Below, one piece after another: positions 11,350 through 44,498 of a stretch of 64,000 bases of DNA. The stretch is from the NCBI RefSeq assembly GCF_050320075.1, contig NZ_CP190018.1, one strand, 5' to 3'. The notes under the pieces are model-generated. The model saw only the letters and a program-made list of their open reading frames with translations, made no database searches and was not told the origin of the DNA. This stretch comes from Escherichia coli. Lineage in GTDB: Bacteria; Pseudomonadota; Gammaproteobacteria; Enterobacterales; Enterobacteriaceae. Numbering within the stretch: the first letter of the stretch is position 1; every line of letters starts with the position of its first letter. The translations under genes and the position numbers were made by a program.

Positions 11350-11368
11350 GCACTAGTTCTCTAGTACA
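11350..11368 (-). promoter_or_regulatory. TrpR operator of the aroH promoter
   Basis: minus-strand GTACTAGAGAACTAGTGC palindrome (the aroH trp-operator sequence as I recall it), about 145 bp upstream of aroH ATG, overlapping the ppsR stop. Confidence 0.55.
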
Positions 11369-12194
11369 TTCGGCGGCTAAGGCCCATGATATCGAGGATC
11401 TTGGTGGCAATCTCTTCTACCGAATAATTGGTACTGTTAATCCACGGGATCTGATTTTTACGGTACAAGGCTTCTACTTCCGCGACTTCCATCCTGCACT
11501 GACGAAGCGAGGCATAGCGACTGTTCTCCCGACGTTCTTCGCGAATCGCCGCCAGACGTTCCGGGTCGATAGTCAGGCCGAACAATTTATGCTGAAGCGG
11601 TTTGAGCGACGCGGGTAGCACCAGATTATCCATGTCGTCGGCAATAAAGGGGTAGTTTGCCGCGCGGATACCAAATTGCATTGCCAGATACAGACTGGTG
11701 GGGGTTTTACCACAGCGAGAAACACCGAGCAGGATCACCTGAGCCTGATCCAGATTGCGCAACGAAATGCCGTCATCGTGGGCGAGGGTGTAATCAATCG
11801 CCGCAATGCGCGCATCATATTTATTGAGATTATTAGGGTTAAGGCCATGGGTACGATGAGCAATCGGCGTTGGATCCAGTTTCATCTCTTGTTGTAGCGG
11901 GGCAACCAGCGCCTGAACGATATCCTGGCAAAAGCCTTCACTTTGCAAGATGATGGCGCGAATCTCCGGCAACACGATGGAGTAGAAGACCAGCGGGCGC
12001 ACGCCTGTCTGGTGATAAATTGCGTCAATCTGATCCTTCACTGCCCGTGCACGGCTCTCATTTTCGACAAACGGCAGCGTAATGCTGCTGATAGTGACGG
12101 GAAATTGTGACATTACTGCGTGTCCTAATACCTCCGCAGTTATTGCCGTACCATCAGAAATATAAAAAACGTGGCGATCAACAGCATTATCCAT
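11361..12194 (-). CDS. ppsR: PEP synthase regulatory protein (bifunctional kinase/pyrophosphorylase)
   Basis: 277-aa ORF, divergent from ppsA. Confidence 0.9.
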
Positions 12195-12424
12195 TTTGTT
12201 CTTCCCGTGATGCAGACATAATTCTATGAAAGCATAAATTAAAAACGCACAGAAGCGTAGAACGTTATGTCTGGTTTATAAAATGAACCTTCAATTTTAT
12301 TTTTTATGAAAACAGCATTTCATTTTTACGGTTTCGTTTATACCGATGGTTTATGTGGAAATTGTCGAAGAGAGCAGATTTGCGCAACGCTGGGATCAGT
12401 CTTAAAAAGTAAAAAAATATATTT

Positions 12425-12440
12425 GCTTGAACGATTCACC
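12425..12440. promoter_or_regulatory. candidate Cra (FruR) site in ppsA promoter region
   Basis: GCTTGAACGATTCACC, imperfect TGAA...TTCA palindrome about 90 bp upstream of ppsA ATG; half-site spacing is off consensus. Confidence 0.3.
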
Positions 12441-12526
12441 GTTTTTTTCATCCGGTTAAATATGCAAAGATAAATGCGCAGAAATGTGTTTCTCAAACCG
12501 TTCATTTATCACAAAAGGATTGTTCG

Positions 12527-14905
12527 ATGTCCAACAATGGCTCGTCACCGCTGGTGCTTTGGTATAACCAACTCGGCATGAATGATGTAGACAGGGTTGG
12601 GGGCAAAAATGCCTCCCTGGGTGAAATGATTACTAACCTTTCCGGAATGGGTGTTTCCGTTCCGAATGGTTTCGCCACAACCGCCGACGCGTTTAACCAG
12701 TTTCTGGACCAAAGCGGCGTAAACCAGCGCATTTATGAACTGCTGGATAAAACGGATATTGACGATGTTACCCAGCTTGCGAAAGCGGGCGCGCAAATCC
12801 GCCAGTGGATTATCGACACTCCCTTCCAGCCTGAGCTGGAAAACGCCATCCGCGAAGCCTATGCACAGCTTTCCGCCGATGACGAAAACGCCTCGTTTGC
12901 GGTGCGTTCCTCCGCTACTGCAGAAGATATGCCGGACGCTTCTTTTGCCGGTCAGCAGGAAACTTTCCTCAACGTTCAGGGTTTTGACGCCGTTCTCGTG
13001 GCAGTGAAACATGTATTTGCTTCTCTGTTTAACGATCGCGCCATCTCTTATCGTGTGCACCAGGGTTACGATCACCGTGGCGTGGCGCTCTCCGCCGGTG
13101 TTCAGCGGATGGTGCGCTCCGACCTCGCATCTTCTGGCGTGATGTTCTCCATTGATACCGAATCCGGCTTTGACCAGGTGGTGTTTATCACTTCCGCATG
13201 GGGCCTTGGTGAAATGGTCGTGCAGGGTGCGGTTAACCCGGATGAGTTTTACGTGCACAAACCGACACTGGCGGCGAATCGCCCGGCTATCGTGCGCCGC
13301 ACCATGGGGTCGAAAAAAATCCGCATGGTCTACGCGCCGACCCAGGAGCACGGCAAGCAGGTTAAAATCGAAGACGTACCGCAGGAACAGCGTGACATCT
13401 TCTCGCTGACCAACGAAGAAGTGCAGGAACTGGCAAAACAGGCCGTACAAATTGAGAAACACTACGGTCGCCCAATGGATATTGAGTGGGCGAAAGATGG
13501 CCACACCGGCAAACTGTTCATTGTGCAGGCGCGCCCGGAAACCGTGCGCTCACGCGGTCAGGTCATGGAGCGTTATACGCTGCATTCACAGGGTAAGATT
13601 ATCGCCGAAGGCCGTGCTATCGGTCATCGCATCGGCGCGGGTCCGGTGAAAGTCATCCATGACATCAGCGAAATGAACCGCATCGAACCTGGCGACGTGC
13701 TGGTTACTGACATGACTGACCCGGACTGGGAACCGATCATGAAGAAGGCATCTGCCATCGTCACCAATCGTGGCGGTCGTACCTGTCACGCGGCGATCAT
13801 CGCTCGTGAACTCGGCATTCCGGCGGTAGTGGGCTGTGGTGATGCAACAGAACGGATGAAAGACGGTGAGAACGTCACTGTTTCTTGTGCCGAAGGTGAT
13901 ACCGGTTATGTCTATGCGGAGTTGCTGGAATTTAGCGTGAAAAGCTCCAGCGTAGAAACGATGCCTGATCTGCCGTTGAAGGTGATGATGAACGTCGGTA
14001 ACCCGGACCGTGCTTTCGACTTCGCCTGCCTGCCGAACGAAGGCGTGGGCCTTGCGCGTCTGGAATTTATCATCAACCGTATGATTGGCGTCCACCCACG
14101 CGCACTGCTTGAGTTTGACGATCAGGAACCGCAGTTGCAAAACGAAATCCGCGAGATGATGAAAGGTTTTGATTCTCCGCGTGAATTTTACGTTGGGCGT
14201 CTGACTGAAGGGATCGCGACGCTGGGTGCCGCGTTTTATCCGAAGCGCGTCATTGTCCGTCTCTCTGATTTTAAATCGAACGAATATGCCAACCTGGTCG
14301 GTGGTGAGCGTTACGAGCCAGATGAAGAGAACCCGATGCTCGGCTTCCGTGGCGCGGGCCGCTATGTTTCCGACAGCTTCCGCGACTGCTTTGCGCTGGA
14401 GTGTGAAGCAGTGAAACGTGTGCGCAGCGACATGGGACTGACCAACGTTGAGATCATGATCCCGTTCGTGCGTACCGTAGATCAGGCGAAAGCGGTGGTT
14501 GACGAATTGGCGCGTCAGGGGCTGAAACGTGGTGAGAACGGGCTGAAAATCATCATGATGTGTGAAATTCCGTCCAACGCCTTGCTGGCAGAGCAGTTCC
14601 TCGAATATTTCGACGGCTTCTCAATTGGCTCAAACGACATGACACAGCTGGCGCTCGGTCTGGACCGTGACTCCGGAGTGGTGTCTGAACTGTTCGATGA
14701 GCGCAACGATGCGGTGAAAGCACTGCTGTCGATGGCGATTCGTGCCGCGAAGAAACAGGGCAAATATGTCGGGATTTGCGGTCAGGGCCCGTCCGACCAC
14801 GAAGACTTTGCCGCATGGTTGATGGAAGAAGGGATCGATAGCCTGTCTCTGAACCCGGATACCGTGGTGCAAACCTGGTTAAGCCTGGCTGAACTGAAGA
14901 AATAA
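12527..14905 (+). CDS. ppsA: phosphoenolpyruvate synthase
   Basis: 792-aa ORF with PEP-utilising enzyme domains. Confidence 0.95.
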
Positions 14906-42529: not shown

Positions 42530-43942
42530 TTACAGGACGTGAACAGATGCGGTGTTAGTAGTGCCGCTCGGTACCAGTGCACCAGAAACCATAACTACGA
42601 CGTCACCTTTGTGTGCCAGACCGCTCTGCAGAGCCAGTTCTTTACCCAGACGGTAGAAATCATCAGTAGAAGTGATCTCTTTAACCAGCTGCGGCACAAC
42701 GCCTTTGCTCAGTACCAACTGATGAGCCGTTTTTTCGTTGGTGGTCAGTGCCAGGATGGTGGCATCCGGGAAGTATTTACGTACTGCGCGAGCAGATTTA
42801 CCGCCCTGGGTAGCAACCACGATCAGCGGGGCATCCAGTTTTTCAGCAGTTTCAACGGCACCACGGCATACCGCTTCGGTAATGCGCAGTTTACGGTTGT
42901 CATTGTTGAACTCGAGACGGCTGTTCATCACGCGGTCGGTACGTTCGCAGATGGTCGCCATGATAGAAACCGCTTCCAGCGGGTATTTACCTTTTGCGGA
43001 TTCACCAGACAGCATCACTGCGTCAGTACCGTCGAGGATGGCGTTTGCAACGTCACCGGCTTCTGCGCGAGTCGGGCGTGGGTTTTTGATCATGGAATCC
43101 AGCATCTGGGTCGCAGTGATAACGACTTTACGTGCACGGATACATTTTTCGATCATCATCTTCTGGGCGAAGATAACTTCTTCTACCGGGATTTCTACAC
43201 CCAGGTCGCCACGCGCAACCATGATGCCGTCAGAGGCTTCGAGGATTTCGTCGAAGTTGTTGAGGCCTTCCTGGTTTTCGATTTTGGAGATGATGTGGAT
43301 GTTTTCGCCGCCGTGCGCTTTCAGGTGCTCACGGATTTCGATAACGTCAGAACGCTTACGAATAAAGGAAGCAGCGACAAAGTCTACGCCTTGTTCGCAA
43401 CCAAAGATCAGGTCCTGTTTGTCTTTTTCAGCCAGTGCTGGCAGGGCAATGGAAACGCCAGGCAGGTTCACACCTTTGTTTTCACCCAGGTCGCCGTTGT
43501 TCAGCACTTTACAGATAACTTTGTTACCTTCAATGGCAGTAACTTCCATACCGATCAGACCATCGTCAACCAGTACGGTGTTGCCAACAGACAGGTCAGT
43601 AGTGAAACCTTCATACGTTACCGCAACCATTTCGCTGTTGCCGATAACAGATTTATCAGTGGTGAAAGTAAAGGTCTGACCCGCTTTCAGAGAAACGTCG
43701 TTACCGCCTTCCAGTTTCATGGTGCGGATTTCCGGACCTTTGGTATCAAGCAGGATAGCGGCGGTTTTACCAGTTTTGCTCATCACGTTGCGCAGATTCT
43801 GAATGCGCTGACCGTGTTCTGCATAGTCACCATGAGAGAAGTTCAGACGCATAACGTTCATGCCAGCGTCCAGCATTTTAGCTAACATCTCTTCAGATTC
43901 GGTTTTCGGTCCGATGGTGCAAACAATTTTGGTCTTTTTCAT
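42530..43942 (-). CDS. pykF: pyruvate kinase I
   Basis: 470-aa product from ATG 43942 ([19 protein letters not shown]); track ORF has an in-frame 72-codon upstream extension. Confidence 0.95.
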
Positions 43943-44498
43943 GACAGTCTTAGTCTTTAAGTTGAGAAGGATGGGAGAAACTTGCTTTCTGGGCGCACTG
44001 CCGGAAAGCGAATCCGGTATTACGAAAGTGGTGGTGCCTCGCTCTAAGGATAGGTGACATCGAAAAAGCGTGCAGAGGAATGTGTGCTTGTGTCTCAGCC
44101 CAACGTGAGTGCCTGTTTTTGAGTCGTTGAGTTCTACAGTCCAAAGTGCTGAAACCATTCAAGAGTCAATTGGCGCGCATTATACGCTGAAATTAATCCA
44201 AAAGGAAAACAAAAACAGCGTTTCAAAAAATATACAACTTGTAAGACAATAAATTGTTATCAAAGATTTAACGTTCCAGGGAAAAGGTTACGCAAAAACT
44301 TCGCTGTTTGCGCAACGTCTGGTGCCGGGGTTGTCACTGTGAAGATAAGTGAAAGTTCATCCGGTGTATAAATACATCATCGCTCAATTGCTACAGTTAA
44401 AATAATTTATCGCGTTATTTGTCTGATTTTGTTTGATTTTTGTCTAATTGGTTAGATTGATATATGCTGATAGTTGGCATGATAAATAGGTATAAAGA

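Follow-up and report, generated by a model that had tools for sequence, protein, structure and literature searches.

Control of ppsA by Cra (FruR) is a textbook case of flux-dependent control of the switch between glycolysis and gluconeogenesis, and ppsA is listed as one of the genes of gluconeogenesis whose expression Cra raises when carbon sources are poor (PMC5888115). In PMC7897506, which summarises Ramseier 1993 and Negre 1998 on binding and release, effector-free Cra is described as binding and stimulating an otherwise basal ppsA promoter from which fructose-1-phosphate displaces it. The same source, citing Negre 1998, positions the EcFruR operator at -45.5 and describes FruR at ppsA as a class I activator that strengthens RNA polymerase alpha-CTD binding. 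Cra target sequences have been represented both by an older, asymmetric 14-bp consensus, RSTGAAWCSNTHHW, quoted in PMC5829826, and by a published symmetric motif, gcTGAAtCGaTTCAgc (PMC5888115). The ppsA operator itself, OppsA, puts synthetic promoters under Cra-dependent control (PMC9948231), and already serves as a part in synthetic flux biosensors. From an evolutionary standpoint, FruR acts locally, on fru, in Vibrionales and Pseudomonadales, and its role became global in Enterobacterales (PMC4052901).

The DNA analysed here, a 64-kb stretch referred to below as the window, is part of an Escherichia coli chromosome: a 421-bp query spanning the ppsR/ppsA spacer was found in 5423 of 5426 complete E. 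coli genomes, many of them 100% identical to it, and the spacer differs from that of K-12 MG1655 by a single base, at position 12329, outside the Cra operator. The genes ppsR and ppsA have aroH and fadK as neighbours in the window, and the two genes, identified by NCBIfam equivalog models, leave between them the divergent spacer of 332 bp (12195..12526) that an earlier, sequence-only reading of this DNA had delimited; the AT-richness claimed in that reading is likewise evident, with a GC content of 33.4% vs 50% for the window. A scan for PpsA with one genome taken per species yielded 80 gammaproteobacterial loci (L003-L082); in 78 of these the two genes are divergently arranged, the exceptions being the two Legionella loci. 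Within this set the Enterobacterales spacers are about twice as long as the others (median 327 bp vs 147.5 bp), a difference that goes along with the emergence of the Cra box and of KdgR-like boxes. The coordinates of all features are collected in Table 1.

Table 1. Features of the ppsR/ppsA locus, in window coordinates
Feature	Position	Strand	Basis or detail
ppsR (ydiA), PEP synthase regulatory kinase/phosphorylase	11361..12194	-	NCBIfam NF049928 equivalog_domain, 430 bits; RefSeq annotation of identical E. coli DNA
ppsR core promoter	12219..12236	-	starts 12224 and 12219; -10 TATGCT, 12236..12231 on minus strand
Conserved AT-rich block with two KdgR-like boxes	12280..12324		box A 12280..12298, box B 12306..12324
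Cra (FruR) operator O_ppsA	12425..12440	-	minus strand GGTGAATCGTTCAAGC; 14-bp consensus match 12427..12440; centre -45.5
-35 region, ppsA promoter	12443..12448	+	TTTTTT, 2/6 to TTGACA, 17 bp 5' of -10 hexamer
Extended -10, ppsA promoter	12463..12471	+	TG 12463-12464, one base, AAAGAT 12466..12471
ppsA transcription start (G)	12478	+	PMC3415461 supplement
ppsA 5' leader, 49 nt	12478..12526	+	Shine-Dalgarno AAGGA 12515..12519
Candidate 27-aa ORF	12484..12567	+	only ATG-initiated ORF wholly inside transcript
ppsA, phosphoenolpyruvate synthase	12527..14905	+	NF005057 and TIGR01418 equivalog models, ~1300 bits
PdhR box CTTTGGTATAACCAACT	12557..12573		inside ppsA codons 11-16, centre +88

Our principal conclusion is that the segment 12425..12440 is almost certainly the operator through which Cra activates the ppsA promoter. 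This conclusion draws on sequence identity, consensus match, the -45.5 geometry and conservation; binding, alpha-CTD dependence and effector release are taken from the literature. The window has a single copy of the 16-mer GCTTGAACGATTCACC, which corresponds to K-12 NC_000913.3 1787199..1787214 (NC_000913.2 1785223..1785238); the reverse complement of the 16-mer is, letter for letter, the published Cra binding site 'OppsA', ggtgaatcgttcaagc (PMC9948231 Table S5). O_ppsA is already known, and the present analysis describes it in a further E. coli strain. In its minus-strand reading (GGTGAATCGTTCAA), the box, of which CGATTCAC is a segment, fits the asymmetric consensus at all 14 of 14 positions, and the best score reached elsewhere in the spacer, with all other positions scored, is no higher than 12/14. 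From base composition, chance would yield 0.0037 perfect matches for the spacer and about 0.55 for the window (0.70 per window according to shuffles); three were observed in the window, the pykF operator among them.

The sequence-only reading had placed an imperfect TGAA...TTCA palindrome about 90 bp upstream of ppsA, which agrees with the 94.5 bp measured from the centre of the 16-mer to the ppsA ATG, and had expressed unease about its half-site spacing. Relative to the symmetric consensus this misfit is real, as the plus-strand arrangement TGAA-CGA-TTCA has a 3-bp gap vs the 4-bp gap of gcTGAAtCGaTTCAgc, and the site matches that consensus at 12 of 16 positions. The unease arises because the site joins one perfect half-site to one degenerate half-site. 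The perfect half (TGAATCG on the minus strand, CGATTCACC on the plus strand) adjoins and faces the ppsA promoter, while the distal half, GTTCAA as compared with the ideal GATTCA (the ideal form at O_ppsA being GATTCAGC), is apparently shifted or compressed by one base. Cra sites pair a strong TGAAWC half with a weak second one, and the odd spacing reflects this normal asymmetry; the symmetric Cra consensus is an average and sets no requirement for individual sites.

The window also supplies an internal positive control in the form of the Cra box of pykF. A perfect match to the asymmetric consensus, GCTGAAACCATTCA, lies upstream of pykF, a gene classically repressed by Cra, at 44148..44161 and is the only other intergenic one in the window; relative to the pykF transcription start (~44171, minus strand, from the data set of PMC3415461) it occupies +11..+24, the geometry expected for a Cra-repressed gene. 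The third perfect match, AGTGAAACCTTCAT at 43601..43614, falls within coding sequence of pykF and may be due to chance.

The ppsA transcription start could be placed at 12478 by means of the 51-nt upstream sequence printed in the supplement of PMC3415461, which is identical to the window; the supplement lists this start at NC_000913.2 1785185, minus strand, with 420 reads and a 49-nt leader. With its centre at 12432.5, O_ppsA is thus situated at -45.5. Classical activators are centred at -41.5 (class II) or -61.5 (class I), and a position of -45.5, between the two, is unusual. It is nevertheless the position attributed to Negre et al. 1998 in PMC7897506, and the footprinted Cra site, as that source reports it, therefore does not lie elsewhere in the spacer. 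Downstream of the operator, the promoter has TG at -15/-14 and AAAGAT at -12..-7 (A-11, T-7), and the TTTTTT at its -35 position is part of a conserved T-tract that begins 2 bp past O_ppsA. A generic sigma-70 promoter scan of the spacer returned no plus-strand promoter, because the -35 position holds the T-tract only; the promoter was placed instead by the published start sites and by phylogenetic footprinting. With an extended -10 and essentially no -35, the ppsA promoter therefore depends on an activator.

Conservation of the box was assessed in 17 Enterobacterales (the window together with L003-L018) and in a comparison set of 62 other gammaproteobacterial spacers. Among the Enterobacterales the box scores 14/14 in 13 species, 13/14 in three and 12/14 in one (Acerihabitans), with the variant GGTGAATCGATCAA present in Yersinia, Photorhabdus, Brenneria and Arsenophonus, and the E. 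coli orientation, with the strong half facing the promoter, is kept in all but Budvicia (16/17). The 62 comparison spacers contain no perfect Cra match, and two of them reach 13/14 at unrelated positions; this distribution is consistent with Cra being a global regulator in Enterobacterales only (PMC4052901). When eight Enterobacteriaceae are aligned, no other 16-bp block of the spacer is conserved as well as the box (0.969 vs a mean of 0.715); the extended -10 shows no variation at its TG, A-11 and T-7, and the T-tract is conserved.

The geometry of the box is conserved as well. A TGnnAnnnT element follows the box at a distance of 22-23 bp in 16 of the 17 Enterobacterales, as compared with 2.3% of shuffles, such that the predicted box centre is -45.5 or -46.5 in 16/17 and the box-to-(-10) distance is constant within 1 bp in the same proportion of species (16/17); the distance from the box to the ATG, on the other hand, ranges from 82 to 206 bp. 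What is conserved is thus the placement of the box relative to the promoter, which is what one would expect of a position-dependent activator. Leader length and the stretch separating box from promoter drift across the order, unlike the box, its orientation and its geometry. The distal half-site is the ideal GATTCA in none of the 17 species and G(T/A)TCAA in 13; because this degenerate half is kept across the order, the asymmetry is a conserved property and not decay. Within E. coli, a 76-bp query comprising the box and the core promoter was matched in 4849 of 5426 genomes, with at least 99% identity in 4487, and two variant genomes (L083 and L084) have an unchanged box flanked by A-tracts and T-tracts of varying length (12402..12448). 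The A-tract 5' of the box is one A shorter in strain WB61 and several bases longer in SCU-485, and in SCU-485 the run between box and -35 region is T6, not T7, a change that would shift the box to -44.5. Overall, the possible Cra site proposed by the sequence-only reading is borne out by its identity to OppsA, its 14/14 consensus match, its centre at -45.5 and its standing as the best-conserved block of the spacer.

A second cluster of conserved sequences lies on the ppsR side of the spacer. Two ppsR starts were mapped by sequence from the supplement of PMC3415461 (8 and 7 reads, corresponding to 30- and 25-nt leaders), and the block 12229..12244, which includes the ppsR -10, ranks second for conservation within the spacer (0.938). 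Further upstream, box B (ATGAAAACAGCATTTCATT, 12306..12324) matches at 17/19 what we take to be the KdgR consensus, AATRAAAYRNYRTTTYATT, and is the best match in the 64-kb window; both boxes were scored against this assumed consensus, to which the regions upstream of K-12 kdgK and kdgT, used as a check, match at 17/19 and 18/19. Box A is weak in E. coli; its score rises to 16-17/19 in Citrobacter, Enterobacter and Superficieibacter, and a box in Brenneria reaches 18/19. The pattern TGAA-N8-TTCA is present in 7 of 10 Enterobacteriaceae and in none of the 62 other gammaproteobacteria, and arises in 1.1% of shuffles. KdgR input at ppsR-ppsA was reportedly predicted by comparative genomics in 2004. 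In Dickeya dadantii, ppsA, ydiA and pykF have been shown to be KdgR-regulated (PMC6127512). The boxes in the E. coli ppsR-ppsA spacer are probable KdgR boxes. A KdgR-like sequence, TTTGAAACGCTGTTTTTGT, 15/19 by manual count, also occurs at about -57..-39 of pykF.

Several alternatives to, or extensions of, the operator reading can be considered, and the one that survives best is compatible with it: the same Cra site might also control the divergent ppsR promoter and so serve as a bidirectional operator. The divergent synteny retained in 78/80 loci would suit such an arrangement, as would the second perfect Cra-consensus match that Citrobacter has near its ppsR promoter. However, synteny is older than the Cra site, because the site is absent outside Enterobacterales; the site lies 208.5 bp from the ppsR start; and reads at the ppsR start are low (7-8 vs 420 for ppsA). 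Furthermore, the conserved elements upstream of ppsR fit KdgR better than Cra, and the E. coli sequence corresponding to the Citrobacter box reaches about 10/14 by manual count. A second Cra site near E. coli ppsR was accordingly rejected, the block being better described as a KdgR box, and control of ppsR from O_ppsA appears unlikely to us.

Considerably less probable is that the site serves mainly as the operator of another LacI/GalR-family regulator sharing the AACG/CGTT core, with Cra binding incidental. LacI-family operators are in general alike around the central CG, a resemblance that lends this idea some initial plausibility. The flanking half-site GGTGAATC, however, is the Cra-specific half, and the analyses run gave no pointer to a regulator other than Cra at the site. 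The transplanted operator confers Cra-dependent control (PMC9948231), the distribution of the box follows the lineage in which Cra became global (PMC4052901), and deletion of cra is reported in the literature to abolish carbon-source regulation of ppsA together with binding to this fragment. Finally, the notion of a palindrome arisen by chance in AT-rich DNA, with the functional ppsA Cra site elsewhere in the spacer, could appeal to the imperfect 12/16 symmetric match and to other TGAA-containing spacer sequences that reach 12/14 in a generic scan, but it is effectively refuted already, and its probability is very low, given the 0.0037 perfect matches expected in the spacer, the want of any other spacer position above 12/14, the identity with the published operator, the exact -45.5 geometry, and the fixed distance from the -10 of what is the most conserved block across Enterobacterales.

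With the Cra operator reading retained, a more tentative proposal concerns its asymmetry. Because the distal half is never ideal, the strong half faces the promoter in 16/17 species and the -10 distance is fixed in 16/17, the operator might be held by selection in an asymmetric, sub-optimal form, perhaps for tuning of Cra occupancy to the flux signal or for the orientation or bend that activation from the unusual -45.5 position would need; a smaller option would be a spacer receiving two inputs, from Cra and KdgR. We regard this as possible yet doubtful, and know of no characterisation in E. coli of a Cra and KdgR two-input switch at ppsR-ppsA.

The region downstream of the operator has been linked to additional regulators. 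The ppsA 5' UTR is reported as a region of control by CsrA, CsrC and ArcZ (PMC9426594), and the sole GGA motif of the leader sits within the AAGGA Shine-Dalgarno sequence, flanked by ACAA/UUGU; this context would be compatible with the reported CsrA repression and with effects of ArcZ and CsrC via the 5' UTR. A riboswitch or attenuator was considered and rejected, since the leader matched no family in Rfam and shows less structure than its shuffled controls (fold z-score +2.0). An inverted repeat, GATAAATG/CATTTATC at 12469-76 / 12503-10, straddles the ppsA start; with arms on either side of the transcription start it was rejected as an RNA hairpin. According to PMC9426594, which cites Weaver 2019, a small protein, PssL, is expressed from the ppsA 5' UTR, and the 27-aa ORF is a candidate for it: this ORF begins 6 nt past the transcription start of ppsA and runs across the ppsA start codon in a different frame, and in the alignment its ATG is not conserved beyond Escherichia.

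Binding of PdhR and of CRP has also been reported. The PdhR box matches AATTGGTnnnACCAATT at 11/14, and a PdhR site, AgTTGGTtatACCAAag, listed at 1785098 in Table 1 of PMC7660256, maps to window position 12565; that study identified the site by genomic SELEX and found ppsA mRNA reduced in a pdhR mutant (PMC7660256). The box overlaps the conserved peptide WYNQL, and coding constraint may thus contribute to its conservation. For CRP, binding at the ppsA region was reported by genomic SELEX (PMC3105977); a CRP-consensus scan of the spacer gave at best 7/10 core matches, for example TTATGTGGAAATTGTCGAAGAG (12351..12372), and no convincing box, and the reported binding therefore could not be placed in the spacer.

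Taken with the published work, the locus suggests the following course of events. Under low glycolytic flux, e.g. on pyruvate, lactate or acetate, free Cra, a LacI/GalR-family protein, would occupy the asymmetric site; bound at -45.5, just 5' of a promoter without a usable -35, it would help RNA polymerase to bind, reportedly via alpha-CTD in class I fashion, and transcription of ppsA from 12478 would rise. The AT-rich tract 12402..12424 directly 5' of the box may supply docking DNA for alpha-CTD. During sugar metabolism, fructose-1-phosphate would free Cra from the DNA and leave ppsA at its basal level. Fructose-1,6-bisphosphate is widely reported as a Cra-releasing effector as well. So familiar an interaction carries little weight as a discovery; the modest addition made here is that the box, its orientation and its -45.5/-46.5 geometry are each conserved in 16/17 Enterobacterales.

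Compared with the K-12 O_ppsA (Ramseier et al. 1993, Negre et al. 1998), the site described here has the same sequence, the same -45.5 position and the same genomic context, and shows no difference. The pykF operator resembles it in fitting the same asymmetric consensus at 14/14 (GCTGAAACCATTCA) and in being bound by the same regulator, but the pykF site lies downstream of the start, where Cra represses, whereas at ppsA Cra activates from a site 5' of the -35 region. With O1 and O2 of fruB (e.g. gctgaaacgtttcaag) the ppsA operator shares the form of a 14-16-bp imperfect palindrome in which the left half, TGAAWC, is conserved and the right half degenerate; the fruB sites, however, overlap the promoter and repress, and the ppsA distal half, GTTCAA, is further from the ideal GATTCA. 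A more distant likeness exists to class I and class II activation of the CRP type, in which a dimeric activator is likewise stationed directly 5' of a promoter whose -35 is poor and acts, reportedly, via alpha-CTD. The regulators nevertheless belong to different families, CRP/FNR on the one hand and LacI/GalR for Cra on the other, and the -45.5 position of Cra is intermediate; and while the ligand enables binding in the CRP-type systems, that of Cra takes the activator off the DNA.
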